64,000 nt of DNA. Origin: an uncultured Azospirillum sp. Lineage in GTDB: Bacteria; Pseudomonadota; Alphaproteobacteria; RF32; CAG-239. Under the pieces are notes generated by a model that saw only the letters and a program-made list of their open reading frames with translations, was not told the DNA's origin and ran no database searches. Shown in pieces: positions 7,357-43,566 of this stretch. The stretch spans positions 8,484-72,483 of the forward strand of contig CABUBU010000003.1 in NCBI GenBank assembly GCA_902489795.1. Reading direction: 5' to 3'. Each line of letters opens with the position of its first letter. The first letter of the stretch is position 1. The position numbers were made by a program, and so were the translations under genes.

Positions 7357-7392
7357 TTTTTTCTCCCAAAAAAAATCATATTCCAAGTAATT

Positions 7393-7421
7393 ATAATAGC
7401 CAATTTTTAGCTATAATACAA
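7393..7421 (-). promoter_or_regulatory. Candidate sigma70 promoter for the pilin gene
   Basis: On the minus strand the reading is TTGTAT, a 17-nt spacer, then TATTAT (-35 at 7416-7421, -10 at 7393-7398). Confidence 0.5.
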
Positions 7422-7459
7422 GTCGTTTTTAGCCTGATACGATAAAATCCGCCACAAAA

Positions 7460-8008
7460 TTATTCCATTGTCCACAGGACTTTGGATCCGTTGCGACAGA
7501 TTTTCTTCGCTTCCGGCCGGCTAACCGGCAGCTTGAAGGTCTCTTCTCCCCAACTGAAGCTCTGACGGTTGTCTTTGCCGACGATGGTGACCTGTAAGAG
7601 GCCTAATTCTTCCGGTCGTTCAAAACGGTAGGCCGCAAGGGCAATGCATTCCCCCGTGTTCAATCCGCTGTAAACGACATCAAAACTGCGCTCTCCGGGC
7701 ATCACGGTATCGCCGTTTTCCCCGCTTCCGATTTTTACCGGTTTCCCGAGAGCATTAATCAATTTGCCGCCATCATAGGACAAATTGGTTAACATATTGT
7801 TATCAATTGTCGACTGGGTGCTCAATCCCCAGTAATCAACCCGGCTGGCATAGTTTTTGCGAACCAGCCGGGCGATTTCTTCCACCTGCAGTGCCGCTTC
7901 TTCCACTTTTTGGTTTGGCGAAACATATTGCCGGACAATAAGTACGATCGCTGCCGTCATTATCGCAAGCAAAACATACAGTTGGCGTGTTTGCAGATGC
8001 CTGTTCAT
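7460..8008 (-). CDS. Pilin-like protein lacking a canonical prepilin leader
   Basis: It has an N-terminal hydrophobic helix (LYVLLAIMTAAIVLIV) but no G/E+5 signature. The body shares the pilin paralog motifs (KNYASRVDYWGLSTQ, GLNTGECIALAA). Its start lies 2 nt after the stop of the platform gene. Confidence 0.55.
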   Translation of the reverse strand: MNRHLQTRQLYVLLAIMTAAIVLIVRQYVSPNQKVEEAALQVEEIARLVRKNYASRVDYWGLSTQSTIDNNMLTNLSYDGGKLINALGKPVKIGSGENGDTVMPGERSFDVVYSGLNTGECIALAAYRFERPEELGLLQVTIVGKDNRQSFSWGEETFKLPVSRPEAKKICRNGSKVLWTME

Positions 8009-8009
8009 G

Positions 8010-9134: not shown

Positions 9135-9177
9135 CTCTTATTATCTCCCTGTCTTCCGATAACTCCGGGTCTTGAGG

Positions 9178-10842: not shown

Positions 10843-10851
10843 TTACTTCGC

Positions 10852-13633: not shown

Positions 13634-13663
13634 GTTGGTTTCCTTAATCTAAGAATTTTCAGT

Positions 13664-15289: not shown

Positions 15290-15965
15290 TCTCATCCTCC
15301 ATAGTCTCGACTACCAAGACGCGGTTTCCTTTATAAAATGTTGCGATCGGTGCCGGCCGTGCTCTGGCAAAGGCTCTGACCAAAGCCGAACTGACGTCGG
15401 CAAAACGCCCCCGGAACATAGCTCCGGCGGTTAGGGTATAGTTGCGGTTAGTGTTCCAGATCAGCCGCCAGCCGGCGCGGTCACACCATTCCGTCAACAA
15501 CAGCTTCAGGCTTTTTCCTTCTTCAGCCAGCCAGTCTTCAACCGGATCGTCGGCATTGTTTCCATCTCCTGCGCCGGCTGCACCGTCGTCGCTGACGTTC
15601 TGCTGGGTTTCGTCAACGGTGACTTCTTCTTCGTAATCAACGACTTCTCCGTCAATTGAAGGCGGAATGGTGGCGGACATGTTGCTGCCGGCACCGGCCT
15701 GAACGACTAGGTGGTCGCGCGGCGTTCTTTCGCCGTATTCGCGATAATCGGCGGCAACTTTCGTATAATTTACAAATTCGTCTTCGGCGGCGCAGCCGGT
15801 AATGCCCGGAGTGGGATATTGTCCGGCCGGACAGGTTTGTTTGACCGTCGTGCCCGGAGCAGCCGGCGCTTCCGAATAGTTGTATTCATAATCGTTGTTG
15901 GTTGCACAACCCGATAACAGCAGAACTCCTAAAAAACCGGCTGATAAAAGAAATTTGTAGTTCAT
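15276..15965 (-). CDS. TcpQ/PilL-like outer-membrane lipoprotein of type IVb pili
   Basis: It has a signal peptide plus lipobox (MNYKFLLSAGFLGVLLLSGC). The C-terminal segment LTEWCDRAGWRLIWNTNRNYTLTAGAMFRGRFADVSSALVRAF...ATFYKGNRVLVV matches the TcpQ-type domain pattern. The ORF could also start at 16016. Confidence 0.65.
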   Translation of the reverse strand: MNYKFLLSAGFLGVLLLSGCATNNDYEYNYSEAPAAPGTTVKQTCPAGQYPTPGITGCAAEDEFVNYTKVAADYREYGERTPRDHLVVQAGAGSNMSATIPPSIDGEVVDYEEEVTVDETQQNVSDDGAAGAGDGNNADDPVEDWLAEEGKSLKLLLTEWCDRAGWRLIWNTNRNYTLTAGAMFRGRFADVSSALVRAFARARPAPIATFYKGNRVLVVETMEDENAYE

Positions 15966-16044
15966 TTTTGTGTTTCCTAAGCTGTTTTTATTCATATTTT
16001 TTAACCTATCATACATATTGGAAAAAAATAATCAAGCAGATATT

Positions 16045-17646
16045 CTACCACGACTGGTAATACAAATTCCGCCCTTTATTGCTTTCCTGTACAGTGTTGT
16101 TAACGTTTTCATTTATCCGTAAGGTTCTGATAATGAACGAATTTGGCTCACGGGATGTGAAGACGGTATTTATTTTTTCGTACTCTACACCCTTATTAGT
16201 TAAAATATTGTGTAACAAATTTAATCTTTTTTGCTGCAGTTCAAAAGAGCTGGTCCGGTCAATTCTGATTTCGAGAATGACGCTCGGATCCTCGATGACT
16301 TTGTTGGCGAAAGCCTGTATCCAGCGAAGCGTGGTACCTGAAATTTCGGCTCTGCCCGGCTGGAAGGAAAGTCTCATTTCTGCCGGCAGGATTTTGGCGG
16401 GGGATTTGTCGCGGCTGAATGCGGAGAACAACCCTCTGCGCTTTTTCGGTTTTTCTTCCGTTTGCAGGTTTTCATTGTCGTCCGCGGTCGTTTCGGCGTT
16501 TTCGTCCGAGCTACCGAACATTGAGGCCAGACTCTTCAGCAGCCCGCCGCTTTTGTCGTCGTTTTCGACCGTGTCGCTTTCCGCGGCGGTTTCCTCGTTT
16601 TCTTGTTTTTTGTTCTTCTTCGGCGAAACCAGCTGCGGCGTCAGGTTTTTGTCGTTCATGATGTCTTCCGGAATCGGGATCAGAATGTTTTTGACCATTT
16701 CCGCCACCTGAACTTCTTTGCCGTCTTCAGCGATTTTTTCCGGTGCGTTGAGGGCGGCGTTGATTTCCGATTCGCTCATGCCTTTGTAAAACTCTTCGTC
16801 AAGAACGTGGTTGTTTTTGGGGTTGCGGGTGCCTTTGGCGACCACCCACGGGTTGTCCGCGTTGCCGGCCGTGTCTTTTTCGCTCATTTCATGCCATTCG
16901 CGTGGTGCCGCTTTCGGGGCTTCCGCGGTTTGTTCGACGGCGATCTTGTCAATGTTCAGTTTGCCGCCGTCGGCCATGGCGATCTGATTGTCGGGCGCTT
17001 TGCTTGCAATTTCCACCTTTTCGGCGGCGCCGTTGCCGAATTCAAGCGGGATCGCCTCGTTGTCGGCCTGTTGTGGAAGCGTTGCGGCAAGCAGCTGCGG
17101 CCGAATCGTTTCCGCGGGCTTTTCGGTGTTCTGCCTCTCCGCGGCCGGTTCCGTTTGGTTTGTTCCTGCTTCTTCTGCAAAAACGTTGTCTGCGACCGTC
17201 GCCGGTTGCGGCGCTGCGTCGGCGACAACGGCTGGCCGTTTGGCGACCGGCTGCGAGTCGTTGCTTTCCGTCATGTTTTTTACCGGATCGAAAACGGAAG
17301 CGGCAGCTGAATGTTCAAGCGGAATGTCGGCGGCGTCTTCTATCGAATTGATGCGGATGCCTTCTTCTTCGTCGTCGAAAACAAACAGATTTTTATCAAT
17401 GAAAATTTCCCGTTCGGCCGGCTTCGGGGCCAGTGCAGCCAGAGAAAAGGCCTGAACCGGCGTTGAGGCAGAATAGTTGACCGTCGGCGCTTCGTGCTGA
17501 AAAAAGAGCGCTATGTTTTTGTCGGGAATTGATATTTCCGCATTTCTTCGTTTTTCGGGAACGGCAAACAATCCATTGACCGCCCATATCGTAAACAGAG
17601 AAACGACAAAACTGTTAACAAATATTTTTAAAGTCTTTTTTCTCAT
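16045..17646 (-). CDS. Membrane-anchored Pro/Ala/Glu-rich protein with a degenerate OmpA/MotB-like C-terminal domain
   Basis: An AGAGGGG RBS lies 8 nt upstream of the ATG at 17646. It has an N-terminal TM helix and a long low-complexity acidic middle region. The C-terminus (LRLSFQPGRAEISGTTLRWIQAFANKV...ILEIRIDRTSSFELQQKRLNLLHNILTNKGVEYEKI) resembles OmpA-C-like peptidoglycan-binding domains. It is the first gene of the pilus operon. Confidence 0.55.
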   Translation of the reverse strand: MRKKTLKIFVNSFVVSLFTIWAVNGLFAVPEKRRNAEISIPDKNIALFFQHEAPTVNYSASTPVQAFSLAALAPKPAEREIFIDKNLFVFDDEEEGIRINSIEDAADIPLEHSAAASVFDPVKNMTESNDSQPVAKRPAVVADAAPQPATVADNVFAEEAGTNQTEPAAERQNTEKPAETIRPQLLAATLPQQADNEAIPLEFGNGAAEKVEIASKAPDNQIAMADGGKLNIDKIAVEQTAEAPKAAPREWHEMSEKDTAGNADNPWVVAKGTRNPKNNHVLDEEFYKGMSESEINAALNAPEKIAEDGKEVQVAEMVKNILIPIPEDIMNDKNLTPQLVSPKKNKKQENEETAAESDTVENDDKSGGLLKSLASMFGSSDENAETTADDNENLQTEEKPKKRRGLFSAFSRDKSPAKILPAEMRLSFQPGRAEISGTTLRWIQAFANKVIEDPSVILEIRIDRTSSFELQQKRLNLLHNILTNKGVEYEKINTVFTSREPNSFIIRTLRINENVNNTVQESNKGRNLYYQSW

Positions 17647-17673
17647 TAACTTGACCCCTCTAATGGTTAACAA

Positions 17674-30068: not shown

Positions 30069-30827
30069 ATGAACAAATTCAGTAAAATTCTTGAAGGCAG
30101 CAAAATTCTGGCCATTACCGACAAAAACGGCAGGGAATATCGTTTTGTCGGCGACAGGGAACGGGAAAAGGTCAGTGCCAAGATGATGTATTATCTGTGG
30201 CTTTCCCGTTTCTTTATCGTCACTTCCGCCGCTTCGCTGCTTTTGTTTCTGTCCGCGTCTCTTTCTTTGTTCAACCTGGCGCCGCAGGTGACGGTCGAGC
30301 CTTTTCTGATCATCGACCAGAGTTCTTCGGACGAGATCGTCCGCTATGAACCGATTGCCCACGACATGGCTTCCAAAAAAATGATGATGGAAACCTTCGT
30401 CCGCCAATATGTCATGTATCGCAACACCATCATCAACGACGAGCGCGAAATGATGGTGCGCTGGTATGCCGGCGGCATTCTGAATTATCTTTCCGCGCCG
30501 CAGGTATTTGACGAATTTGCCAAATATCGGGAAGGTATCTGGAAAGACATCACCGACAACCAGACCAGCCAGGAAGTGGAAATCATTTCGATCGGCCGCG
30601 TGGGCGGCGAAAAAAGCCCGGTCTGGAAGGTGGATTTCAAAACTTACGAAGTTTCCGCCCGCCGCCGCAATACGGAAACCGGCGCGTTGTTTCTCCGGGT
30701 TCACTACTGGACCGCTTCGGTCACTTCCTATTTCATTCCCGAACGCGCCTTTATGGGCCGTCGTCTGCTTAATCCTCTCGGTTTTACGGTTACCAGATAT
30801 TCGCAAAGCGAAGTCGAATTCTTGTAA
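30069..30827 (+). CDS. virB8: VirB8-family protein (paralog a)
   Basis: It has an N-terminal TM helix followed by an NTF2-like periplasmic domain ending in the family-typical RLLNPLGFTVTRYSQSE. Confidence 0.85.
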   Translation: MNKFSKILEGSKILAITDKNGREYRFVGDREREKVSAKMMYYLWLSRFFIVTSAASLLLFLSASLSLFNLAPQVTVEPFLIIDQSSSDEIVRYEPIAHDMASKKMMMETFVRQYVMYRNTIINDEREMMVRWYAGGILNYLSAPQVFDEFAKYREGIWKDITDNQTSQEVEIISIGRVGGEKSPVWKVDFKTYEVSARRRNTETGALFLRVHYWTASVTSYFIPERAFMGRRLLNPLGFTVTRYSQSEVEFL

Positions 30828-30945
30828 ATTTGTTAACCATTTTGTTCTATAACGTAAGCAGATCAGAGTTTATTTAAAAAATGTTAGACTTTTGCGAAAA
30901 AAAAGTTTAATTTCAATATATCTTATCATGAACGAGGATGTTTCG

Positions 30946-31134
30946 ATGTATAAAAATGTAATGTTGGTCCTGATTCTTTTGCTGCTCTCGGCCTGCGGCC
31001 TGTTCGGCTCCTATTATGAACCGGAACCGGTCGGCATCGGCCGCGCGTCGGACGAACTGAAGCTTTCGCCCTGCGCCTGCATGCAGGTCGAGTTGCCGAA
31101 AATGCTGCCCGACTGGTTTGTTGAAACGATCTGA
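30946..31134 (+). CDS. Small lipoprotein, VirB7-like by size and position
   Basis: MYKNVMLVLILLLLSAC has a lipobox. The protein is 62 aa, with a GAGGAT RBS, and sits between the two virB8 genes and upstream of virB9. Confidence 0.55.
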   Translation: MYKNVMLVLILLLLSACGLFGSYYEPEPVGIGRASDELKLSPCACMQVELPKMLPDWFVETI

Positions 31135-31149
31135 TGGAAAGTTGCCGGT

Positions 31150-31878
31150 ATGGTACAGCAGTTGGGGGTAAACAATCAAAATCAGCGCTTGCTGGCCGGA
31201 CGCGGCCGGCGGCCGGAATCGCCGGCGTCGTCTCAGGACGCCTTTGTCGCCAACGTCGCCGAAAAACGCTATTTGTGGACGGCGCGCGCGTTTGCCATCA
31301 TTACCGCGGTCAGCCTTTGCTGCAACATCGTGCTGTTGCTGGCGATCGCACAGGTAATACCGTTGTACCGGGTGGAACCGTTTTTGCTCACTTTTCAAAA
31401 CAAGCAGGAGCAGGTTTATAACATTCAGCCGGTCAACCGCGACATGGAGGACGAAAAGGAAATTACCGAAGTGTTCGTCCGCGAATATGTGCTGCTGCGC
31501 AGTTCTTTTAATCGCGACATTCCGGAAGTGGAAGCCCGCTGGATGCCGGGCGGCATGATTGAGGAAATGTCCAGTCCCGCAGTTTACAAAGATTTTGTGG
31601 AAAATACGGCCAACCGCGCCCTGGAACTGATCCGCACCCGGCAGATGATCCGCGATGTGCGGATTATGACGGTTAACGAGCTGGGGGCGGGGATCTGGCA
31701 GGTGGAATATGAAACGCGCGACATGTATCCGGATTCCAAAGCACCGGAGATCAATTACTGGACGGCCAGCCTGAAAGTCGGCTACCGCAGCAAGAGAGTG
31801 AAATTCAAGGGAAGATTGAAAAACCCGGTCGGCTTTACGGTGTACCAATACTCGCTGACTTACAACAAAGTAAAATAA
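31150..31878 (+). CDS. virB8: VirB8-family protein (paralog b)
   Basis: It has a TM helix (FAIITAVSLCCNIVLLLAIAQVI) and a periplasmic domain colinear with paralog a (VEPFLLTFQ..., FVREYVLLR..., ending RLKNPVGFTVYQYSLTYNK). Confidence 0.85.
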   Translation: MVQQLGVNNQNQRLLAGRGRRPESPASSQDAFVANVAEKRYLWTARAFAIITAVSLCCNIVLLLAIAQVIPLYRVEPFLLTFQNKQEQVYNIQPVNRDMEDEKEITEVFVREYVLLRSSFNRDIPEVEARWMPGGMIEEMSSPAVYKDFVENTANRALELIRTRQMIRDVRIMTVNELGAGIWQVEYETRDMYPDSKAPEINYWTASLKVGYRSKRVKFKGRLKNPVGFTVYQYSLTYNKVK

Positions 31879-31892
31879 GGTGGATAAAGATA

Positions 31893-33521
31893 ATGTTATC
31901 AAAGTCTGTAAAAATAAGTGTATTAAGTTTGTTTGCCGTCGCGTTTGCCGCGGAAGCCTTCGCTCAGGCCACGATTAACAGCATGGATCAGAATGCGGAC
32001 CAGTCGCAGGGACAGTACCAGCCGATGGACATGGGCTATGCCGGCTTCAATTCTCTCGGCATGATGCAGAGCGCCTGGCTTGATCCGTTGCAGAACCTCG
32101 GCGAAGGGCAGAGCAAACCGGCTTATTCGAAATATTACTGGTCGCCGGATCTGGTTTTGCCGCTGCGTCTGCGTGAAGGCATGATTACTTTGTTGAACTT
32201 TCCTGAATGGGAAATGATTGAGGACATTTACATCGGTGACAACGCGACTTTTGACGGACAGATTTCGGGGCCGAACACCTTGTTGCTTTATCCCCGCAAA
32301 GGCGCCAACGTCGGCGTTGATACCAACATTATCGTTTTCGGCCGTTCGGGCAATCGTTATGTGTTTTATGTCCGTAGCGAGGGCGTCAATACCGAGCGTC
32401 TGACCAACGCGATCGTTGACATCGACGTGATCGACGGCGCCGGCGGGGCGGGGACGCTCGGTTCCGGCGGTTCGTCTTCCGGCCGCGTCAATGCCAGTAA
32501 ATATTACGGCAACGGCGGCAAGTCGGTAGATTCCACCTTTACCAAAAGATTTCAGAAAAACGACTGGATCAAAAGCATTCCGCTGGATCCGACACAGTTC
32601 CGTTTTGACGTTGAAGTTTACGTTCCCAACCCGGATGACGTTGTCATTGCGCCGGAACGCGTATGGCGTGACGACATTTTCACTTATATCGATCTGGGCG
32701 AAAAGGCGCTCAACATGACCCAGCGCCCGATCGTCACCCTGATTGTCGAGCGGGTTGAGGTTCCGGTCGGATTCCGCACCAAAGGGCCGAACAACCGCCT
32801 GATCATCGTCGAGGCGATCGGCGACATGGTTCTGCGCAACGGTAAGCGTATCGTCTGCCTGAAACTTCGCAGATCCGATGAGGTCGGATTGGATAATATC
32901 AGTTACGCCGACGACATTACCGACAAGGAATGGGACGTTCCGGGCGCCCTGCCGGAAGGCAAACGCGGAAAAGCCGGCTCGGCCAGCTATCCGGACGGTT
33001 TCGGCAGCAATTATGTGGAAGGACAGGTTGATGTCAACGCCGGTTCATCCGAGATGATTGTTCCCGAATACAGCGGCGGCAATAACGGCGAAGGGGTTAC
33101 CATCCGCTACAAGGCCGGCGGCGCCTTCGGTGCCGGCAACGGTCAGGGCGGCGACTTCGATTACTCCAAGATGCGCCGGATCAAAAATACGCAGGAATTT
33201 GATGCCGCGGCCAGCAATTTGGCCAGCCAGTATCGTTACGGATCGGGATTTGCCGACGGAGGCTCCAACATTTCGATTGAGCTCGGCACCGATGCCAATG
33301 TGGACAACCTGGAAAATTTATGGGACAACCTGTCCTCTAAATATTCCAAAATTTTGAAGAACTATGACCCGTTCTTCTCAGTTGACGCGCCGGCGGACGG
33401 ACAGGGCAAAGAGCTTTTCCATCTGCGCATCGGACCGGTCAAAACCTTGGACGAAGGTGACAGCGTGTGCAGCAAACTGGGCAGAAACGGCGTCTTTTGC
33501 AGCGTAGTCAGGACCCAATGA
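31893..33521 (+). CDS. virB9: VirB9/CagX-family outer-membrane core protein with a C-terminal SPOR-like domain
   Basis: It has a signal peptide. The VirB9 N-domain reads PLRLREGMITLLNFPEWEMIEDIYIGDNATF...TNIIVFGRSGNRYVFYV. The VirB9 C-domain reads IAPERVWRDDIFTYIDLGE...RLIIVEAIGDMVLRNGKRIVCLK. A Gly-rich linker follows, then ISIELGTDANVDNLENLWDNLSSKY...LFHLRIGPVKTLDEGDSVCSKLGRNGVFCSVV, which fits the SPOR pattern. Confidence 0.85.
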   Translation: MLSKSVKISVLSLFAVAFAAEAFAQATINSMDQNADQSQGQYQPMDMGYAGFNSLGMMQSAWLDPLQNLGEGQSKPAYSKYYWSPDLVLPLRLREGMITLLNFPEWEMIEDIYIGDNATFDGQISGPNTLLLYPRKGANVGVDTNIIVFGRSGNRYVFYVRSEGVNTERLTNAIVDIDVIDGAGGAGTLGSGGSSSGRVNASKYYGNGGKSVDSTFTKRFQKNDWIKSIPLDPTQFRFDVEVYVPNPDDVVIAPERVWRDDIFTYIDLGEKALNMTQRPIVTLIVERVEVPVGFRTKGPNNRLIIVEAIGDMVLRNGKRIVCLKLRRSDEVGLDNISYADDITDKEWDVPGALPEGKRGKAGSASYPDGFGSNYVEGQVDVNAGSSEMIVPEYSGGNNGEGVTIRYKAGGAFGAGNGQGGDFDYSKMRRIKNTQEFDAAASNLASQYRYGSGFADGGSNISIELGTDANVDNLENLWDNLSSKYSKILKNYDPFFSVDAPADGQGKELFHLRIGPVKTLDEGDSVCSKLGRNGVFCSVVRTQ

Positions 33522-36500
33522 GCAAAGAAGTTTTAACACACTCTGAAAGCTATATCAAAAAAACCAACCGCATAATTCTTGCGGTTGGTATTACTTCTTT
33601 CGTCGTTTTCCTTTTCGGTTTGTATCTTCTGTTTTCAAGCGACGAGCCGATTGACGAATACGAAGAACCGGTTTTCACCGACAACGATGACGCCTTAAAT
33701 GTCGTTGACAACACTCCCGTGCAGGAAAGCATAGAGTTCAGCACGGTGGGCAATACGGAAGTTCCGCTGACGGCGACCCCGAACCCGGTTCCGCTGGGGC
33801 AGGTGGTGCTCGGCACTGATGCCAAAAACGTCCTGACGCTCGGCACCAACGGCAAAACCTCGGTGATGATCATATCGGTTCAGTTGGCGGAGGCGCCCTT
33901 TGACGGTTTTGAGTTCAACGACAACTGCAGCGGCAAGCTTCTGCGCGGCAAGGAAACCTGCGACGTTACCATGAGCTGGACTCCGGTTGTGGCCGGAAAC
34001 GTTCAAAACAACTTTATCGTTTCCTGGCACGAAAGCAATGTTTCCCAAAACAGCGCCAAGGCGGAAAAAGTGCCGGTTTACGGCAATGCCGTCAATAAGG
34101 AAGACTGCAATTTCTGCGAAACCGTTCCGGGCGCGTCCGGTAGCGGAACGGCAACTGCCCCGACGGCAAAGAAAATGCAGCGGGCAATCGTCGGTCCGGG
34201 CGGCGCTGTAATCGGTTATGCCGATGAGGACGGCTATGTCTATGACGAAAACGGCAATGTCATCGGCCGGGTGAATGAAAACGGTCTGGCGGTGGACGGG
34301 GAAGGCAACATTATCGGCGTTGCCAACAACCGCAAACTGGTTTACGACGACAACAACAACGTAATCGGCTATGTCAATCCCGACGGTACGATGGTTGACG
34401 TCGACGGCAACGTTACCGGCCGCATGCTGCCCGACGGAACGGTGGTTGACAATGACGGTAACGTGGTCGGCAAAGCGGTGGATATGGGCTATGTTTATGA
34501 CGAAAACGGCAACATTATCGGCCGGGTAATGCCCGACGGCACAGTAGTCGATCTGAACGGCAACGTGATCGGCCGCGTCAACGAAAAAGGCGAAGTGGTT
34601 GATGCCGACGGCAACGTTATCGGTCATGTTACCAAGTCCGGCCAGGTGGCGGTAGACGGCGACGGCAACATCATCGGCGTGGTTATGCCCGACGGCAGCG
34701 TGGTTGACGCCAACGGCGAAGTGGTCGGCCGAGTGGACGAAAACGGCAACGTTATCGCGGACAAAAATCTGGATGCCAAGAGCGTCCGCCGTCGGCTGGC
34801 CTATGATAAAGACGGCAACGTAATGGGCTATGTCGACGAAAAGGGAAACGTCGTCGACTTTGACGGCAACACCATCGGCCGCAGCCGTCCGGACGGCACT
34901 TTGGTCAATCTTCGCGGCGAGGAAATCGGTTCGGCCGGAACGGCCGGCAACCTGCTGGCTTATGACAAAGACGGCAAGGTCATGGGGTATGTTGACGACG
35001 ACGGAAGCGTCATCGGCGCCGACGGCAAAAAAATCGGCGAACTGCTGCCCGACGGCAGTCTGGTCGACGGACAGGGCAACGTGATCGGCCGGGTTGACAA
35101 CAGCGGCCGCCGGCTGGCTTACGACAAAGACGGCAACATTATCGGCTATATTGACGAGAACGGAAACGTCGTCGATTTTGCCGGCAACGTCATCGGCAAG
35201 GTTCAGCCCGACGGCAGCATCGTCGATGCCGACGGCAATGTGATCGGCAAGGCCGGTCCGGCTTATCAACGTCTGGCTTATGACAAGGACGGAAACATTA
35301 TCGGTTATATTGACGAAAACGGCAACGTGGTCGATTTTGACGGCAACGTCATCGGCAAAATGCTGGAAGACGGCACCATCGTTGACGAAAACGGCAATAT
35401 TATCGGCCGGGCGGGAACGGTTAACCGCAAATTGGCCTATGACAAGGACGGCAACGTCATCGGCTATGTCGACGAAAACGGCAACGTGGTGGATTTCAAC
35501 GGCAACGTCATCGGCAAAATGCTGCCCGACGGCACCATTGTCGACCTGGACGGCAATCCGATCGGCGAAGTTGCCGGTTTTTCCCAGATCGTGCTCGACA
35601 AGTTCGGCAAAATCAGCGGCTATGTCGGCAAAAACGGCGAAGTTTACGACAAGGACGGCAACATTGTCGGTTATGTCGACGAGAACGGCAATGTGGTCAA
35701 CAGCACGCAGACGATCCTCGGGCGTCTGATTCAGGAACAGATGATTCCGGTTACCCCGCAGGGGGAAATTCTCGGCAAGGTCAACTCAAACGGAACGGTT
35801 GAAAACGACCGCAAACAAATCGTCGGCCGCATTCTCTCCAACGGACTGGTGAAAAACCCCTCCGGCTCCAAAATCGTCGCCCGGCTTGTTCGCGGCGGGT
35901 TGGTTGTCGGTCTGGGCTGCAAAAACATCGGTTATCTGGAAAAAGACGGCGTCATCCGCAAGTCTAACGAAGATACCGGATACAAGGTCAACGCCGACGG
36001 CGTGGTGGTGGACGAAAGCGGCGCCTACGTCGGCGAAGTGGTCACCCCCGGTCCGGTGTTTGACAATACCTGCACCATGATCGGCGAGGTGGATACCGAC
36101 GGCATTGTCCGCGACGGCGGCGGTTCCTATGTCGGCTGCGTTAATCCGGACGGTACCGTTTTGGACGAGAAGGGCGAGATCGTGGGCGGCGTTTCCCGTT
36201 CGGGCATAGCGCTTTCTTATGACGGCAATTTCCTGGGAACGGTCAACTCCAACGGACTGGTATTTTCTCCGCAGGGAGAAGCGGTCGGCTGCGTTGGCAC
36301 CTACGGCGACGTGTTTGACAAGAAAGGCGGCTATGTCGGTCGTGTGCTCGAAAATACCTATGCGTATGATCTGGAAGGAAATTTTCTCAATATGGTCAAC
36401 GAAAGCGGGCGGGTTTCGATCAAAGGCCAGTCGGCGGGAAAATTATTGGCTCACAATGTTCTGGTTGACGAAAACAATAAAATCATCGGCGTGGCAATGC

Positions 36501-37585
36501 CGGAAAAAACGGCGGTGCTGAACCCTTCCGGCAAGCTGATCGGTCATTTGTTTCCCGACGGACACGTCTATGACGCCAAAGGCGTATCAATGGGCAAAAT
36601 GTACAGTGACGGCATGAGCTTTTACAACCATGTGCCGGGCAATCCAGCAGCTTCCGGGCTGATTGCCGATTTTGACGGCAATATCGTTGGCCAGACCGGC
36701 TACAACGGCGAAGTCGTCAACCGTTTCGGCGAAAGACTCGGCAGGGTGGATGCCAAAGGTGTCTTCTTTGACGCAAACGGCGAATACAAGGGGGCGGTGC
36801 TCAAACGCGGCGCGGCCATCGGCTATGACGGTGCGTTCCTCGGCTACAGCCTGACCGACGGCCGGGTGGTGAATTTTGACGGCAAAACGGTCGGCCGCAG
36901 TTCTTCCGACGGCAAGGTGCTGAATTCGGATCTGGAAGTGGTCGGAGAGGTTATCCCCGAAAACATCGTCATTGACATCTGGGGCGCCTACAAGGGGCGG
37001 GTCAATTCTCTAGGCGACGTAATCGACCTTAAAAACAATAACGTAACCGCCATTTTGCCGGGTGGTTCGACCGACAAGAACCTGAGTCTGCTCAAACGCG
37101 GCGCGGTCATTGACTTCGGCGGCAAGGTGATCGGCACGGTCATGCCCGACGGCAGTGTAATTGACGTCTTGAACATCAATATTGGCCGGGTTTTGTCCGA
37201 CGGCAGCGTGATCAACAATTCAGGTAAGCTGATCGGCGAAGTAATTGACGGCGACATCGTCATCGACGACGCGGACAAAGTGGTCGGCAGCGTCAACTTT
37301 GCCGGCATTGTCACCGGCCGCAGCGGCGAAGTGATCGGCCGCAGCCTGTCTTCCGATCTGGCGGTGGACAATAACGATGCCGTTCTGGGACGGATTTATA
37401 AAATCGGTACCGCCATTCTCGGCAATGACGGCCAGTATGCCGGACGCCTGCGTTATGACGGCAGCGTCATCGGCCGCGACGGCAAAATCATCGGCTACCT
37501 GAAAAGCAACGGTTCGTTTGTCAATCTGGATAAAAAAGTTGCCGGCTACGCTTTACAGGAAGTGGCTAAAAATCGGAGGAACTAG
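33518..37585 (+). CDS. Membrane-anchored giant short-repeat protein (1,355 aa)
   Basis: It has an ATGA overlap with the virB9 stop. An N-terminal TM helix (IILAVGITSFVVFLFGLYLLF) is followed by an Ig/ASH-like segment (PNPVPLGQVVLGTDAKNVLTLGTNGKTSVMIISV...CDVTMSWTPVVAGNV). Then come dozens of ~13-residue units centred on D-x-D/N-G-N-V/I-I-G. Confidence 0.85.
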   Translation: MSKEVLTHSESYIKKTNRIILAVGITSFVVFLFGLYLLFSSDEPIDEYEEPVFTDNDDALNVVDNTPVQESIEFSTVGNTEVPLTATPNPVPLGQVVLGTDAKNVLTLGTNGKTSVMIISVQLAEAPFDGFEFNDNCSGKLLRGKETCDVTMSWTPVVAGNVQNNFIVSWHESNVSQNSAKAEKVPVYGNAVNKEDCNFCETVPGASGSGTATAPTAKKMQRAIVGPGGAVIGYADEDGYVYDENGNVIGRVNENGLAVDGEGNIIGVANNRKLVYDDNNNVIGYVNPDGTMVDVDGNVTGRMLPDGTVVDNDGNVVGKAVDMGYVYDENGNIIGRVMPDGTVVDLNGNVIGRVNEKGEVVDADGNVIGHVTKSGQVAVDGDGNIIGVVMPDGSVVDANGEVVGRVDENGNVIADKNLDAKSVRRRLAYDKDGNVMGYVDEKGNVVDFDGNTIGRSRPDGTLVNLRGEEIGSAGTAGNLLAYDKDGKVMGYVDDDGSVIGADGKKIGELLPDGSLVDGQGNVIGRVDNSGRRLAYDKDGNIIGYIDENGNVVDFAGNVIGKVQPDGSIVDADGNVIGKAGPAYQRLAYDKDGNIIGYIDENGNVVDFDGNVIGKMLEDGTIVDENGNIIGRAGTVNRKLAYDKDGNVIGYVDENGNVVDFNGNVIGKMLPDGTIVDLDGNPIGEVAGFSQIVLDKFGKISGYVGKNGEVYDKDGNIVGYVDENGNVVNSTQTILGRLIQEQMIPVTPQGEILGKVNSNGTVENDRKQIVGRILSNGLVKNPSGSKIVARLVRGGLVVGLGCKNIGYLEKDGVIRKSNEDTGYKVNADGVVVDESGAYVGEVVTPGPVFDNTCTMIGEVDTDGIVRDGGGSYVGCVNPDGTVLDEKGEIVGGVSRSGIALSYDGNFLGTVNSNGLVFSPQGEAVGCVGTYGDVFDKKGGYVGRVLENTYAYDLEGNFLNMVNESGRVSIKGQSAGKLLAHNVLVDENNKIIGVAMPEKTAVLNPSGKLIGHLFPDGHVYDAKGVSMGKMYSDGMSFYNHVPGNPAASGLIADFDGNIVGQTGYNGEVVNRFGERLGRVDAKGVFFDANGEYKGAVLKRGAAIGYDGAFLGYSLTDGRVVNFDGKTVGRSSSDGKVLNSDLEVVGEVIPENIVIDIWGAYKGRVNSLGDVIDLKNNNVTAILPGGSTDKNLSLLKRGAVIDFGGKVIGTVMPDGSVIDVLNINIGRVLSDGSVINNSGKLIGEVIDGDIVIDDADKVVGSVNFAGIVTGRSGEVIGRSLSSDLAVDNNDAVLGRIYKIGTAILGNDGQYAGRLRYDGSVIGRDGKIIGYLKSNGSFVNLDKKVAGYALQEVAKNRRN

Positions 37586-37587
37586 CA

Positions 37588-40500
37588 TTGAAACTTAAGT
37601 TGGGCAAAATCTTGACGTTATCAGTGAAAACCGCAGCGGCAGTCGGCTGTCTGGCTTTTAGCGTTTCCGTTGCTTCGGCTCAGGAAATCACCGCCATTGA
37701 CTTTAACGGCGACCTAATCGGCAAAGTAATCCCCGATGGCAAGGTCGTCAGCTTTGAAAACCAGCTGATCGGCAACATTACGGCCGACAGTCTGATCGTC
37801 AATTTTGAAGGCAACCTGATCGGCGGCGTGGTGCCGAAAGGGATTGCCATCGGCAACGACAACCGTTTGCTCGGCAAGGTGAACAATGACGGTACCGTGC
37901 GTCTGGCCACCGGCAAAATAGTCGGCAAGGTGCTGCCCAACGGTTTGGTCGTCGATGACCGCTTTTCGGTTTTGGGTGCGGTGCTGTTTCCCGGTTTGGT
38001 TTATTCCGACAGCGGCGAAACCGTCGGCCGGCTGACCGGTGACGGCTTGTATTCCAATCTGCAGGGACAGAACATCGGCTTTGTTTCCCCCGACGGTTAT
38101 GCTTACCGCCGGGTCGGTAACGATTATGTGATCGACGGCCGGCTGATTTCCTCCAAAATGGTGATTGACGCAGGGGGCAAGTTTATCGGCAGCATTGCTC
38201 CGGGCGGCAAAGTGACGGATTTTGAGGGCAAGGCGATCGGTCTGATCAAAGCCAACGGTTTTGCCTACGATAATCAGGATAAGATTATCGGCCGCATCGT
38301 CAAATCGGGCTATGCTTTCGATAACGGCGGCAAATATATCGGTTTTGTAACTTACAACGGCGAGGTCGTCGCCAAAAACAAGGTGATCGGACGCCTGCTG
38401 ATTGACGGTACCATTGCCGATGCCAAAGGCGAAGTTATCGGCTATATGGCGGACATCGCATCGACGGTGACGGACGCCGCCGGCAAATATGTCGGTCGCA
38501 TTATGCCGGAAGGACGGATTGCCAAAGCGCGCAATTTTGTCGGCACTATGGGGCCGCGGGGACTGGTTTTCGGCGCCGACGGGGTCGAAAATGGCCGGTT
38601 GGCGGTAACCGGACCGGTGTTTGACTATCGCGGCACCTTAAAGGGACACGCCTTAAGAAACGGGCAGGTAATTCTGCTTGGCGGCACGCCGGTAGGTACC
38701 GTTTACGGCAGCCGCGCTTCCGACTATAACGGCCGCGGCATCGGCATGACTTTTGAAACCCGTCTGGTCGTCGATTCCTTAAACCGGGCGCTGGGTGTTA
38801 ACGGCATCGGCTCCGCCTATATCGACGGAGAAGAAAAGAAATTTCTGTCGCCTTTCGGTTATGTTTATAATGCGGACGGCGGCATCGACGGCAACCTGCT
38901 GCCGCTGGGCGGAATCTATAATTTGAGCGGCAAGACGGTCGCTTTTGTGCATCCGAACGGCGAAATGGTCAATAACAACGCGATAATCAGCGGACGGCTG
39001 ACGCAATACGGCTACGGCGTTGATGAAAAAAACCTGATTCTCGGTAAAAATATCGATGTCGGCTATGCCGTTGATGATCGGGGAAACAGTCTGGGCATTC
39101 TGGCGGACGGCAATATGCTGCTCGACAAGTCGTTGAAGACCGTCGGCAAAATTTTGCCCGACGACGAAGTCGTTTCCGACCTGAATAACCCGAATGCCAT
39201 GATGCCGGTTGTCGGCAAAGCGCGTGCCCGCAGCCTGGCGCTTGGTTTTCAGGGACGTTTTATCGGTTATGTGGACAGTAGCGGAACGGTTCGCGACACG
39301 GGCGCTTCCGTCGTCGGCAAAGCCGGTGCGGGAGACGTTGTTTTTGACAACGGTGGCATTGTTGTAGGCGGCACCGTTTCTTATATGCCGGTGATTGATG
39401 ATCAATGTGAGTTTGTCGGAGTGACGGCGGCGCAGGGCGAAGTCCGCAACTACCGCGAAGTCAATATGGGACGTCTTTTGCCCAACGGACAGGTTTTTTC
39501 AGTCAACAATACGATTATCGGTCATGCGGTAATACCGGGTGTGGTGATTGACTTTAACGGCAATATGGTAGGCACTGTTTCTGCCAACGGTAAGGTGCTG
39601 AATTACGCCAACCAGAACCTCGGCTGCCTCAACCGCCGCGGTCAGCTTTTGAACGGCAAAGGTGCGCAGACTGGTAAACGGGTGGAAGTGGCACCGGTGA
39701 TGAATTTCAACAATGTGATTACCGGTCGCTCAACGCTCGACGGTACCGTAATTAACGCTCAAAACAGTGTCATCGGTTATATTCGTCCGGACGATTCTGT
39801 CAGTTCCAAAACCGGGCTGCCGACCGGCATTTTGTTCAAATACCGTTTTGCTTTCGGCAATGACAACAAGCTGATCGGCACTGTCAACGACAAAGCGGAA
39901 GTGATCAACGGTCGCGGCGAAAAGAGCGGTATGGTCGATTTCGACGGCAATGTCGTCATCGGCGGCGAAAAGGCGGGATATGCCCTTTATGACATGTATA
40001 TTTACGACAACAATGATATGGTCAGCGGCTATATTACCGCCGACGGACAGGTGCTGTCGCTGAGCAATCAGAATCTTGGCGCCCTGACCAGAGGTTTTCT
40101 GGTCAACAAGAAAGGCAAAGCGATCGGTCGCGGCAACCGTGATTTCCATATCCGTGACAATTTGAACGCCATTCTCGGCGAACTGAGGCTTGACGGTCGG
40201 GTTCTGAGTGCGGAAAACGAGCTGGTCGGCACCTTGGGGGCTTCCGGCGACATCATTTCCGCCGCCGGCGAGGTGATTGCCCGCGCCCGACCGCTGCAGT
40301 TTTACGAAGCGGTGAAAAGACAGCCAATTTATGACAAGGACGGCAACATTATCGGTTATGTTTCGCCCCGCTTACAGGCGGTGGACGCCAAGGGCAGGGT
40401 GATCGGCCGCATCAGCGCCGATGAGCAGCAGCTTGCCATTGCTGCCGATGGCAGGGTTCTGGGGCATATTGACGCCAACGGCAACGTACTTGACAAGGAC

Positions 40501-42588
40501 GGTAAGGTTGTTGGCAAACTTCTTCCTGATGGAAGTATTGCAGCCATCTCGTCCGTCATTGGCCAAGTTGATGAAAAAGAGCGAACGCTTGCATTTGATG
40601 CATCTGGAAACCTCTTGGGTTATGTCGATGACAATGGTAATGTTGTTGATAGCAAGGGAAATATTGTAGGCAAGGTTAACGAAAAGAACGAGGTTGTTGA
40701 TCTTAGCGGAAATGTGGTAGGCAAAGCAGATCCTTCAAAGAAAGGAAAAATTGCTCGTGATAAATCCGGAAATATTATCGGTTATGCAGATGAAAGCGGA
40801 AATGTGTTTGGCAAAGACGGTAAGATCATCGGTACGGTCAGTGCTGACGGCAGCGTCATTGAAAAAGGTGCACAGATCATAGGTATGGCCGGAGAAAAGC
40901 GCAAACTGGTTTATGACAAAAACAACAAAGTTATCGGTTATGTCGACGCCAAAGGAAAAGTGCTTGATTTTAACGGCAATGTTGTCGGTGAAGCGGTTGA
41001 AGGCGGGGAAATTGTTGACGCCCGCGGCAATGTCATCGGTCAACTGAACAAAGACGGTTCGGCCATCAGTCTGGACGGTTCGGTGATCGGCAATACCAAA
41101 TTGAACTGGTATGAGAAGCCGCAGCCCGCTCAGCCGGTGGAGTTGCCGGAAGTCGGCGCGCGAGAGGTTGCCGACGTCGGTCAGTTCAAACGTTCGCTGA
41201 ACATTGCGTTGACGCCGGACGGCGAATATCTGGGCGATATTCTGGAAGACGGCAATGTCGTTGACAAAAAGGGAACGGTTATCGGCAAATTGCTGCCGGA
41301 CGGTTTGATCGTAGACGGCGAAGGCTCGCTGATCGGTATTGAAGAAGCGGCCAAAAAAGCCGATACCGGCGAAATGTTCGTTCCGGCCGGAACTTTCGGC
41401 CAGGGCGGCGCGTACGGCACCGGTACCGGCGGCGGCAACCTCGGTCCCGGCGGCGGTTTTGGTCCGGGCGAGCGTTATGATCCGCAGCGGGCGGCGGCTT
41501 TGCAGACGGCGCAAAACGAGCGCCGGCAGGGAATGTACGTCGGCAAAATCAGTTCCAGCATCCGCAAGGAGGCGTTTGACGGCTACCAGAAAGACTGGCA
41601 GGAACAGGGCATTGACAAGGTTATTTCTTCCTGGCGGGTGGACATGAGCGAAATGATTTTGGCCGACAAGCCGATTCCGGCTGTTATTGCCCGTTCCATC
41701 GATACGCAGAACCCGGTGCCGATTACGGCGTTTGTTGAGCGCAACGTCTATGCCGAAGACGGCAGGAACATCGTCATTCCGGCCGGCAGCCGGCTGATGG
41801 GCGAACTCGGCGGCACTGCCGGCGGCGGTGGTACCGAAACCGCTTCGGAATCCGCGCGCATTACCATTGTCTGGCAGCGGCTGATTCGTCCCGACGGCGT
41901 ATTGTTTACCTTCCAGGGCGAAACCGGTGACGCGCAGGGACGCGGCGGCGCGCTGGGTTATGTTGACCAGCAGCTTGGCAAGAAATACGGCATGCCGCTG
42001 ATTACCACGCTTTTAACCAGCGCAACCAGCTATATGATGGCGACCGATGAAGAAGAAAGCACCATGGATTCGGAAACGTCCCGTCAACAGGCGGCCAATG
42101 ACGCGCGTCAGAATTTCATTGACCAGATGAACCAGATTTTTGAAATGATCCTGTCCGACAAGACCAACATCCGCGCGCTGACCTATGTTCCGGCCGGTAC
42201 CCGTATCATCGTCTATCCGAAAGTCGACCTGTGGCTGAGAACGCTGGAGCGTGATGCCGATGCCTCGACCAACATGAAGAAGAAAGATGTGCTGATCGAC
42301 GATAAGGAAGCACAGGATCGTATTGCCACGCAGGCGGCTGAACGTCGGATCAAACAGGCCGGCGGTGGTGGCGGCTCGGCTTCCTCTCAGGTCGTTTACG
42401 AATCTGAGAAAGCTGAAGTTCAGCCGGTTCTGCTGGAGGACAGCAGCGCCAAACAGTCTGGCCGCGCGCCGGCTTCGACGGTCGGTGCCACGCCTCCGCC
42501 TCCGCCGAGTATGGGCGGCGGTTCGTCTTCTTCGTCGTCTTCTTCTTCTTCTTCTTCATCAAGCAGCGGCGTACCGCAGTTGTTTTAA
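37588..42588 (+). CDS. virB10: VirB10/TrbI-family protein with a ~1,200-aa N-terminal short-repeat region and a poly-Ser tail
   Basis: It has a TTG start with a GGAGGA RBS and an N-terminal signal/anchor sequence. The same G-x-x-I-G short repeats run through about aa 30-1170, followed by a Gly-rich linker. The TrbI/VirB10 domain reads KPIPAVIARSIDTQNPVPITAFVERNVYAEDGRNIVIPAGSRLMGE...ARITIVWQRLIRPDGVLFTFQGETGDAQGRGGALGYVDQQLGKKYG. The C-terminus is GGGS(16)GVPQLF. Confidence 0.9.
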   Translation: MKLKLGKILTLSVKTAAAVGCLAFSVSVASAQEITAIDFNGDLIGKVIPDGKVVSFENQLIGNITADSLIVNFEGNLIGGVVPKGIAIGNDNRLLGKVNNDGTVRLATGKIVGKVLPNGLVVDDRFSVLGAVLFPGLVYSDSGETVGRLTGDGLYSNLQGQNIGFVSPDGYAYRRVGNDYVIDGRLISSKMVIDAGGKFIGSIAPGGKVTDFEGKAIGLIKANGFAYDNQDKIIGRIVKSGYAFDNGGKYIGFVTYNGEVVAKNKVIGRLLIDGTIADAKGEVIGYMADIASTVTDAAGKYVGRIMPEGRIAKARNFVGTMGPRGLVFGADGVENGRLAVTGPVFDYRGTLKGHALRNGQVILLGGTPVGTVYGSRASDYNGRGIGMTFETRLVVDSLNRALGVNGIGSAYIDGEEKKFLSPFGYVYNADGGIDGNLLPLGGIYNLSGKTVAFVHPNGEMVNNNAIISGRLTQYGYGVDEKNLILGKNIDVGYAVDDRGNSLGILADGNMLLDKSLKTVGKILPDDEVVSDLNNPNAMMPVVGKARARSLALGFQGRFIGYVDSSGTVRDTGASVVGKAGAGDVVFDNGGIVVGGTVSYMPVIDDQCEFVGVTAAQGEVRNYREVNMGRLLPNGQVFSVNNTIIGHAVIPGVVIDFNGNMVGTVSANGKVLNYANQNLGCLNRRGQLLNGKGAQTGKRVEVAPVMNFNNVITGRSTLDGTVINAQNSVIGYIRPDDSVSSKTGLPTGILFKYRFAFGNDNKLIGTVNDKAEVINGRGEKSGMVDFDGNVVIGGEKAGYALYDMYIYDNNDMVSGYITADGQVLSLSNQNLGALTRGFLVNKKGKAIGRGNRDFHIRDNLNAILGELRLDGRVLSAENELVGTLGASGDIISAAGEVIARARPLQFYEAVKRQPIYDKDGNIIGYVSPRLQAVDAKGRVIGRISADEQQLAIAADGRVLGHIDANGNVLDKDGKVVGKLLPDGSIAAISSVIGQVDEKERTLAFDASGNLLGYVDDNGNVVDSKGNIVGKVNEKNEVVDLSGNVVGKADPSKKGKIARDKSGNIIGYADESGNVFGKDGKIIGTVSADGSVIEKGAQIIGMAGEKRKLVYDKNNKVIGYVDAKGKVLDFNGNVVGEAVEGGEIVDARGNVIGQLNKDGSAISLDGSVIGNTKLNWYEKPQPAQPVELPEVGAREVADVGQFKRSLNIALTPDGEYLGDILEDGNVVDKKGTVIGKLLPDGLIVDGEGSLIGIEEAAKKADTGEMFVPAGTFGQGGAYGTGTGGGNLGPGGGFGPGERYDPQRAAALQTAQNERRQGMYVGKISSSIRKEAFDGYQKDWQEQGIDKVISSWRVDMSEMILADKPIPAVIARSIDTQNPVPITAFVERNVYAEDGRNIVIPAGSRLMGELGGTAGGGGTETASESARITIVWQRLIRPDGVLFTFQGETGDAQGRGGALGYVDQQLGKKYGMPLITTLLTSATSYMMATDEEESTMDSETSRQQAANDARQNFIDQMNQIFEMILSDKTNIRALTYVPAGTRIIVYPKVDLWLRTLERDADASTNMKKKDVLIDDKEAQDRIATQAAERRIKQAGGGGGSASSQVVYESEKAEVQPVLLEDSSAKQSGRAPASTVGATPPPPPSMGGGSSSSSSSSSSSSSSSGVPQLF

Positions 42589-42597
42589 GGAGGTTAC

Positions 42598-43566
42598 ATG
42601 AGCTTTGAAGTATTGGAATCTGTTCTGCGACCGCTTTCGTACTGGTACAATCAGGACAATATCGAAGAAGTGGCAATCAACCGCGCCGGCCAGGTCTGGC
42701 TGCGCTTGCGCGGCAAACGCGCCTACCCCTGGGTGATGTACAAGGACGAAAAGCTGACGAAGGAATATCTGACCGATTTGCTTTATATTGTCGCCAACAC
42801 CTATGAAATTCCGTTTGATCCGGTTGCCGGCAGTCCGGTGGTTTATGCCAGCATTCCCGGCGAACACCGTTTTTCCGCCATTTGCGGCAAAAACGTGATG
42901 TATGACGAAGAAGATCTGACCGGCGGTATTGCGCTTACCATCCGCGTGCACAGTGACGACGTGGCTTTCGGCTTGGGCGACTACGGTTTAAAGCAGGGGG
43001 AAAAGCTTCATCAGATCAATCCGCTGAAAACGATCAAGGATCCGGAAGATCCTTATGAACGGCTGCTGCTCAGCATCAAGCGCGGCGATCATATTCTGGT
43101 CAGCGGTGCGACTTCTACCGGTAAAACGACGTTTTTGAACAACCTGCTGAAGATTTTGGATATTCATAAACGGATCATCACCATTGAAGATACGCGAGAA
43201 CTGCTGGTTCCGCATCCTAACCGCACCCATATCGTGATGTCGCGTACCGAACAGACAAACCAGTTTGACTATGCCAAAATTATCGACTTGGTGGTACGTT
43301 TTACGCCCGACGCGATTATCGGCGGCGAAATTTCCACCAGTAACGCCGGCGCGCTTTGGGAACTGATGGGATCCGGCCACGACAACTGTCTGGCCACCAT
43401 CCACGCGGAAAGTTCGACCGCCGCTTACGAGGCTTTTGTCGATCGTATTCTGCATACTTATCCGACCATGGATCGCAAGAAAACGATTGAGGAAATGCAC
43501 CATAAGCTGCGGGTCGTGCAAATCAACCGTGACGGCAACCTGCGCGCGGTAACGGAAGTTACTTAG
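42598..43566 (+). CDS. virB11: VirB11-family T4SS ATPase
   Basis: Walker A is GATSTGKTTFLN, followed by ITIEDTRELL and a His-box region GSGHDNCLATIHAESS. The protein is 322 aa with an AAGGAGG RBS. Confidence 0.95.
   Translation: MSFEVLESVLRPLSYWYNQDNIEEVAINRAGQVWLRLRGKRAYPWVMYKDEKLTKEYLTDLLYIVANTYEIPFDPVAGSPVVYASIPGEHRFSAICGKNVMYDEEDLTGGIALTIRVHSDDVAFGLGDYGLKQGEKLHQINPLKTIKDPEDPYERLLLSIKRGDHILVSGATSTGKTTFLNNLLKILDIHKRIITIEDTRELLVPHPNRTHIVMSRTEQTNQFDYAKIIDLVVRFTPDAIIGGEISTSNAGALWELMGSGHDNCLATIHAESSTAAYEAFVDRILHTYPTMDRKKTIEEMHHKLRVVQINRDGNLRAVTEVT

Follow-up and report, generated by a model that had tools for sequence, protein, structure and literature searches.

Several large machines that cross the bacterial envelope carry wall-binding modules, e.g., the OmpA-like domain of DotK/IcmN in Legionella, the extensions of TagL and TssL in type VI secretion systems, and the AMIN domains of PilQ, which reportedly direct type IV pilus machines to the future poles via binding of the septal wall; further examples are GspA/ExeA of type II secretion systems and the LysM domains of TsaP and FimV. 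How type IV secretion systems (T4SSs) cross the peptidoglycan layer and become fixed in it is poorly understood, and the classical answer, the lytic transglycosylase VirB1, is missing from the locus described here. This locus lies on a stretch of 64,000 nucleotides (in the following, the window) from contig CABUBU010000003.1 (positions 8,484 to 72,483) of an uncultured Azospirillum sp. of the alphaproteobacterial order RF32 (GenBank assembly GCA_902489795.1). At positions 31893-33521 of its plus strand, exactly where it had been annotated, an open reading frame (ORF) encodes a secreted VirB9 protein of 542 amino acids. Its last ~84 residues were confirmed by modeling and fold comparison as a genuine SPOR-fold domain, in which the glutamine that is typical of glycan-binding SPOR domains has been replaced by glutamate nearly without exception. 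A wall-binding-type fold that is built into a multicopy core subunit and kept throughout an order is indicative of a built-in solution for anchoring or positioning the machine.

The presence of a SPOR-like C-terminal domain on a Gly-rich linker had been proposed in a first-pass annotation of the VirB9 protein, and it was borne out here, as both CagX (PF03524) and SPOR (PF05036) were matched above their Pfam cutoffs. The SPOR match covers residues 462 to 540 and scored 22.3 bits for the whole protein, 27.7 bits when the tail was searched by itself (E 3.4e-6), and 26.0 bits in a six-frame search of the genome, at a cutoff of 21; the tail sequence that was originally quoted corresponds to residues 460 to 539 of the ORF product. 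An AlphaFold2 (AF2) model of residues 441 to 542, based on 19 family tails, reached a mean predicted local distance difference test score (pLDDT) of 80.7, with values of >90 in the core, and displays the β-α-β-β-α-β succession (E-H-E-E-H-E) that had been read from the sequence (β1, 460-467; α1, 470-483; β2, 492-497; β3, 509-516; α2, 519-530; β4, 537-540). The top three Foldseek matches of this model in the PDB were all SPOR domains, with template modeling (TM) scores of 0.65 to 0.76, namely CwlC (1x60; E 8.4e-4), RlpA with bound denuded glycan (6i09; TM score of 0.76, root mean square deviation [rmsd] of 2.5 Å), and apo RlpA (6i05); the predicted fold is hence that of a SPOR domain and not an unrelated one. 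Later matches were generic ferredoxin-like folds with rmsd values of 6 to 12 Å, and DedD appeared at rank 41. The agreement of profile, model, and fold matches clearly exceeds what chance would give. The sequence profile of the tail found no SPOR domain among the PDB chains, with chance matches only at E values of ≥0.2; the divergence among SPOR domains defeats this kind of search, and folds had to be compared instead. The supposed resemblance to alphaproteobacterial SPOR proteins could be substantiated with a domain of the same genome, since hhalign aligned the tail profile with the genome's own FtsN-like SPOR domain (probability of 80%, E 1.4e-5, 30% identity), and the Cys-x9-Cys spacing is identical in the two. 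As in alphaproteobacterial SPOR proteins, Cys526 and Cys536 of the tail likely form a periplasmic disulfide.

The remaining part of the protein is that of a divergent member of the VirB9 superfamily. The CagX/VirB9 match (43.6 bits versus a cutoff of 34.2) extends over residues 79 to 323 and hidden Markov model (HMM) positions 4 to 195 of 198 and hence includes both VirB9 domains, and the score for the VirB9 equivalog TIGR02781 of NCBIfam is far below the threshold (28.5 bits versus a cutoff of 217.7), so that the protein does not qualify as a canonical TIGR02781 equivalog. Regarding the two-β-sandwich architecture of the solved TraO, TrwF, and CagX proteins, the VirB9 family profile retrieved no solved VirB9 from the PDB chains, and the full-length AF2 model, which was built with 30 close homologues, had a mean pLDDT of 38 and was used neither for the VirB9 domains nor for the fold search. 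Mean identity between the window protein and 30 homologues amounts to 90% in each of the two VirB9 domains and 84% in the SPOR tail, compared with 55% in the first linker, 42% in the tether that precedes the tail, and 35% in the signal peptide, the lowest value of all regions, for which AF2 predicts a helix at residues 2 to 20. The few semiconserved motifs of the Gly-rich tether are GQxDxxxGxSExIVPxY, FDYSKMxRIxN, and YGYGSGF.

The ligand-binding site of SPOR domains has been characterized in detail for RlpA. Four side chains, i.e., Q270, R302, R309, and R311, contact the glycan directly via polar interactions, and Q270 (Pfam position 8) is the only one of them that is highly conserved across SPOR domains (PMC6895207). 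It forms a hydrogen bond with the lactyl carboxylate of N-acetylmuramic acid, which is exposed once the stem peptide has been removed, and most of the remaining contacts involve main-chain atoms of strand β1 and the following Ala-Asn turn (PMC6895207). Four agreeing routes, i.e., the Pfam coordinates (tail residue 462 equals PF05036 HMM position 7), a bridge from the genome's own RlpA to 6i05, MAFFT, and hhalign, align the tail stretch E-L-G-T-D-A-N with Q-V-G-A-F-A-N of Pseudomonas aeruginosa RlpA. In this register, RlpA Q270, which is equivalent to Q251 of FtsN and Q351 of DamX, corresponds to E463 of the VirB9 tail, A273 to T466, A275-N276 to A468-N469, L307 to L508, R309 to H510, and R311 to R512.

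The conserved β1 glutamine of SPOR domains is thus missing from the VirB9 tail, and this holds for the family as a whole. Among 235 tails, the position is occupied by Glu in 232 and by Gln, Asp, or a gap in one each, and more distant tails, including those encoded on plasmids, have Asp. Gln is present in each of the genome's three housekeeping SPOR domains, i.e., in RlpA (YYVQAG), in the FtsN-like protein (WQIQLM), and in a PBP5-type protein (WAVQIG). The occurrence of a C-terminal SPOR domain with canonical Gln in a PBP5/6-type D-alanyl-D-alanine carboxypeptidase (contig C22, 27348-27575) is a less common architecture. For the basic patch at the NAM(1) subsite, formed in RlpA by R302, R309, and R311, the picture is mixed. 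The equivalent of R311 is an Arg in 234 of the 235 tails, position 510 (R309) is occupied by His in 215 and by Arg in 17 of them, and the isoelectric point (pI) of the tail is 4.9 compared with 8.3 to 10.0 for reference SPOR domains. From these alignments it appears that the tail has kept the fold together with the backbone groove and that the subsite responsible for specificity toward denuded glycan is systematically altered. Because of the near-invariant exchange of Gln for Glu, the His in place of R309, and the low pI, binding of the tail is expected to be weaker than, or different from, the septal binding of FtsN- and RlpA-type domains. The near-invariant exchange at this one position represents a natural experiment on the ligand specificity of SPOR domains.

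In its canonical form, a SPOR domain on VirB9 would bind denuded glycan produced by amidases, and it could then clamp the machine in a gap that the M23-VirB6 protein of the same locus has cut into the wall and/or target it to the septum or the new poles. The SPOR fold with its Pfam score above the cutoff, the retained β1 backbone, Ala-Asn turn, and R311 equivalent, and the presence of an Amidase_3 gene in the genome are in line with such a function. The E. coli allele FtsN Q251E, which carries the very same exchange and is defective in binding of denuded glycan, reduces the septal localization of the isolated SPOR domain about 2-fold without abolishing it (bioRxiv 10.1101/2024.05.13.594014). 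The Glu of the VirB9 tails, set against the Gln that the three housekeeping domains of the genome have kept, the His at the R309 position, and the acidic pI speak against it. Septal or polar targeting, as suggested in the first-pass annotation, is accordingly a possibility, though a weakened one.

The second element of this scenario, a protein with an M23 peptidase domain fused to a VirB6-like region, exists. Residues 273 to 651 of this protein are paralogous to the neighboring VirB6-like proteins (E 6e-34), so that the fusion itself stands as described, whereas a role of its head as an amidase-activating LytM factor does not. The catalytic set of the M23 domain is complete (H107-x3-D111, H171, and H206-x-H208), and all Zn ligands are present, in contrast to the degenerate sites of the LytM amidase activators EnvC, NlpD, and DipM. 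Since its active-site residues are intact, the domain looks like an active endopeptidase rather than an amidase activator. Endopeptidases cleave the peptide cross-links of the wall, and denuded glycan strands are not their product. Furthermore, in 12 other tail-bearing genomes, among them members of the same family and order, no reading frame was found that joins the M23 and VirB6 parts: the VirB6-like matches begin at query residues 260 to 300 or later, and the M23 matches are located in separate frames, nearly all of them on other contigs. Judged by the lack of a fused frame in these genomes, the M23 head and the SPOR tail are not coinherited, and the tail is far more widely conserved than the head. 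A functional coupling of M23 and SPOR was hence rejected, i.e., the proposed mechanism of first cutting the wall and then clamping onto it is not supported in view of the endopeptidase type of the M23 domain, the missing coinheritance, and the exchange of Gln for Glu. As no SLT/VirB1 gene was found on the T4SS contig, the M23 head may be the wall-opening enzyme of this particular genus. Its presence in the locus, together with the absence of VirB1, would suit a canonical SPOR function; the intact active site and the lack of the fusion in 12 of 12 other genomes do not, and taking all these observations together, we regard a canonical function as distinctly unlikely.

Across families, the Gln site is near-invariably acidic (Glu or Asp) and the R311 site near-invariably Arg, a pattern that looks like the product of selection toward a new site and not like decay. 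A SPOR domain of switched specificity might read a different mark of the wall, e.g., stem-bearing or modified strands, and thereby choose the place where the machine is built. A candidate ligand is not evident, however, and the structural study on RlpA indicates that stem peptides and the SPOR sheet would get in each other's way (PMC6895207). De-N-acetylated glycan was considered as a ligand of the Glu and rejected as unsupported, since a Polysacc_deac_1-type peptidoglycan deacetylase gene is absent from the 95%-complete genome, which argues against the idea of cationic glucosamine. A switch of the SPOR domain to another wall mark appears very unlikely to us.

The fusion of VirB9 and SPOR is by no means an isolated case. 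The gene is 100% identical to a contig of the metagenome-assembled genome (MAG) "Azospirillum sp. 51_20," and the number of homologues in a word-indexed search was 1,790 or more. Those ranked 1 to 120 are 64 to 100% identical and 509 to 574 amino acids long, with the exception of one 405-amino-acid fragment, and many carry PF05036 together with PF03524. A relative is encoded by 230 GTDB species genomes, which are, apart from evident misbinnings, MAGs from gut, rumen, and feces that are labeled Alphaproteobacteria or Azospirillum. In a sample of the order, the tail was detected in 150 of 151 genomes and in all 20 genera, at the end of frames of 520 to 700 amino acids; all of these 151 genomes are 1.3 to 2.0 Mb in size. 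In a sample of the class with one genome per family, it terminates VirB9-sized frames of 456 to 605 amino acids in 12 of 121 families, and the five loci inspected at this level encode full-length VirB9 proteins with 43 to 60% identity. Considering the conservation pattern and the wide distribution in order and class, the fusion is old, vertically inherited, and under purifying selection. A survey of homologues for SPOR fusions had been recommended at the outset, and representatives clustered at 50% identity were therefore searched exhaustively with HMMER, which gave 536 clusters. Among the best 150 of the 536, 101 were full-length, and about 25 of these 101 carry the tail, down to ~39% identity, whereas the more distant VirB9 proteins are devoid of it. 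The SPOR tail consequently appears as the mark of one VirB9 clade and not as a general trait of VirB9. The tail-bearing order comprises abundant, uncultured Alphaproteobacteria of gut and rumen.

Plasmids provide a potential experimental access to the fusion. A tblastn search with the tail of the window protein against the plasmids of PLSDB gave no match, but a distant representative led to plasmid-encoded VirB9 proteins with a homologous tail in Sphingosinicella sp. BN140058 (plasmid p1, NZ_CP035502.1, 112048-113340) and Erythrobacter aureus YH-07 (NZ_CP031358.1, 104805-106103). Their tails aligned with the tail profile in hhalign (90%, E 1.6e-6), the Pfam SPOR match being nonsignificant, and they exhibit the same Cys pair and Asp at the Gln site. 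Both genes adjoin VirB8 and VirB10 genes, and the locus of Sphingosinicella continues with genes for an ATPase (VirB11-type) and a coupling protein (VirD4-type). These diverged tails on plasmids of culturable Sphingomonadales are possible bench models.

Conservation of the tail extends over the surface of the whole domain, with ~50 invariant positions among 84 residues in the family alignment, and the tail HMM (E ≤ 1e-6) detected only VirB9 frames in the class sample, which marks the tails as a subfamily dedicated to VirB9. Both observations, like the loss of the glycan-specific Gln and the acidic surface, could be explained if the SPOR fold were reused as a protein-protein module that does not bind the wall and instead forms a ring with itself or docks to another subunit of the enlarged T4SS, e.g., the β-flower protein, the VirB7-like lipoprotein, or the giant VirB10. 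The TGA stop codon of the VirB9-SPOR gene shares the sequence ATGA (33518-33521) with the start codon of the adjacent β-flower gene, an overlap that suggests translational coupling of the pair and that would suit a direct partnership of the two products; the VirB9-SPOR gene itself is preceded by a Shine-Dalgarno-like GGTGGA 8 nucleotides upstream of its ATG. For FtsN, it has been suggested that SPOR domains interact with each other without the need for glycan binding (bioRxiv 10.1101/2024.05.13.594014). The retention of the backbone groove for glycan contact speaks against a pure protein module, and the long disordered tether is better suited for reaching a remote and extended structure like the sacculus than for a fixed partner within the complex. 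We therefore consider a pure protein module rather unlikely.

The role that appears most likely to us, with about an even chance of being correct, is that of a multivalent, noncanonical device for tethering or positioning the T4SS core at the wall. The T4SS core contains many copies of VirB9, ~14 to 16 in solved systems. In each copy of the window protein, a SPOR-fold module, probably stabilized by the disulfide, would follow the two VirB9 domains on a disordered, Gly-rich tether of ~130 residues, which should be able to span the distance between the outer membrane cap and the sacculus. Due to the copy number of VirB9, the machine would dangle a ring of such modules into the periplasm, one per subunit, and many individually weak contacts might tether or position the unusually large core complex on the peptidoglycan sacculus. 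The backbone-mediated groove, i.e., strand β1, the Ala-Asn turn, and the R311-equivalent Arg, would be available for contact, and the single Amidase_3 gene of the genome is a possible source of substrate. As FtsN Q251E lowers septal localization and does not abolish it, the avidity of many copies could still result in useful binding. From the fusion, its fold and conservation, and the changed site, we thus infer binding of peptidoglycan, multivalency, and an anchoring role.

Several points weigh against this wall tether. The Glu that has replaced the Gln contacting the lactyl carboxylate, together with the acidic surface, opposes any binding of anionic denuded glycan, and the SPOR domain could have been recruited for a protein contact instead. 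The full-length AF2 model is too poor to place the tail relative to the core, and the copy number of VirB9 is that of solved systems, whereas the T4SS of the window is unusual and enlarged. The inspection of HMMER clusters covered the best 150 of the 536. A broader alternative would be that the VirB9 tails represent an ancient, distinct SPOR subclass, with an acidic residue beside an invariant Arg in place of the classical Gln, whose ligand has been switched to a protein or to a wall feature different from denuded glycan and which sites the single chromosomal T4SS in a whole lineage of gut Alphaproteobacteria with small genomes. We deem this proposal improbable on present evidence; if true, a T4SS core subunit would for the first time be seen to contain a device dedicated to positioning or anchoring.

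The genomic context is that of a P-type, rvh-like T4SS, which gene content and distribution identify as chromosomal and vertically inherited (Table 1). The host genome (1.62 Mb, 95% complete) contains four SPOR domains and, according to a genome-wide search, a single VirB9. The typical order virB8-virB9-virB10-virB11 is present, with one extra β-flower gene inserted between virB9 and virB10. Upstream of VirB9, the locus comprises, in this order, a possible VirB2, VirB4, several secreted proteins of unknown function, VirB8, the VirB7-like ORF, and the second VirB8, and VirB9 is followed by the β-flower repeat protein, VirB10, and VirB11. The opposite strand encodes four VirB6-like polytopic proteins, including the one with the N-terminal M23 peptidase. 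The small ORF between the VirB8 paralogues, located within 30892-31134, displays the lipobox LLSAC and is likely the equivalent of VirB7. The N-terminal ~1,300 residues of the giant VirB10 consist of β-flower repeats, which makes it the second giant repeat protein within 33518-42588. Back-to-back upstream of the T4SS, a type IVb pilus cluster (6760-17673, minus strand) encodes a PilS/bundlin-like pilin, GspF, GspE, PilO, a secretin, and TcpQ; its position next to a T4SS recalls the thin-pilus module of IncI plasmids.

Table 1. Features of the VirB9-SPOR gene and its neighborhood (positions refer to the window)
Feature	Position	Strand	Basis
Sec-type signal peptide of VirB9, residues 1-24 (...AEAFA/QA)	31893..31964	+	Read from sequence; no lipobox
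VirB9 N-terminal domain, ~residues 79-180	32127..32432	+	First half of Pfam CagX match; TIGR02781 stretch 83-163
Gly/Ser-rich interdomain linker 1, residues 181-224	32433..32564	+	Length and sequence vary in family alignment
VirB9 C-terminal domain, ~residues 225-330	32565..32882	+	Second half of Pfam CagX match
Gly-rich flexible tether, residues 331-458	32883..33266	+	Many indels; pLDDT <50 in both AF2 models
SPOR-fold domain, residues 459-542	33267..33518	+	Pfam PF05036, AF2, Foldseek, hhalign
Glu463 codon, at conserved glycan-contact Gln position	33279..33281	+	Pfam coordinates, RlpA/6i05 bridge, MAFFT, hhalign
Cys526/Cys536 pair (α2/β4)	33468..33500	+	Both Cys kept in 234/235 tails
Two VirB8 paralogues around small VirB7-like lipoprotein ORF	30069..31878	+	Pfam VirB8, 53.2 and 79.4 bits
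Second VirB8	31150-31878	+	Pfam
Membrane-anchored β-flower repeat protein, 1372 aa	33518..37585	+	Pfam Bflower_2, 288 bits
Giant VirB10, 1666 aa	37588-42588	+	Pfam TrbI, 118.8 bits, residues 1357-1550
VirB11	42598-43566	+	Pfam T2SSE, 76.5 bits
M23 peptidase fused to VirB6-like polytopic region	53732..56653	-	Pfam M23, 73.1 bits

Wall-binding modules on trans-envelope machines are already known, and the fusion of VirB9 with SPOR is apparently undescribed in the literature searched. A full-text search gave no paper on VirB9 together with a SPOR domain, a search on T4SS and SPOR terms revealed no mention of SPOR in the 12 top-ranked of 112 papers, and a search for RF32 and T4SS found nothing. With VirB9, TraO, TrwF, TrbG, and CagX (PF03524), the window protein shares the signal peptide, the N- and C-terminal VirB9 domains, and the neighborhood of virB8 and virB10; it differs from canonical VirB9 proteins in its C-terminal extension of ~210 residues, composed of tether and SPOR domain, which the latter do not have. 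With the SPOR domains of FtsN, DamX, DedD, RlpA, and CwlC (PF05036; 6i05, 6i09, 1x60, and 6ztg), the tail has in common the β-α-β-β-α-β ribonucleoprotein (RNP)-like fold, the G-x-x-A-N turn after β1, the R-x-G-P strand β3, and the C-terminal location on a disordered linker, and with those of Alphaproteobacteria also the Cys pair. Unlike the classical domains, it exhibits Glu instead of Gln, His instead of R309, and an acidic pI, and it is part of a secretion system subunit rather than of a division protein or a wall enzyme.

The rvh T4SS of Rickettsiales is likewise chromosomal, vertically inherited, and found in Alphaproteobacteria with small genomes, and it also has a duplicated VirB8 and several enlarged VirB6-like genes. 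The T4SS of the window is distinguished from it by a single VirB9 with a SPOR tail, a giant β-flower VirB10 with a paralogue, the M23 head on one of the VirB6-like proteins, and the adjacent type IVb pilus cluster. As with rvh in Rickettsiales, the T4SS looks lineage defining in the order, and one may ask what the gut bacteria of this order inject or come into contact with. With modules of the DotK, TagL, and PilQ type, the VirB9 tail shares the principle that a large machine spanning the envelope is fixed or positioned by means of a module that binds the wall; those modules are OmpA-like, AMIN, or LysM folds, whereas here it is a SPOR fold with a noncanonical site, located on VirB9 itself.

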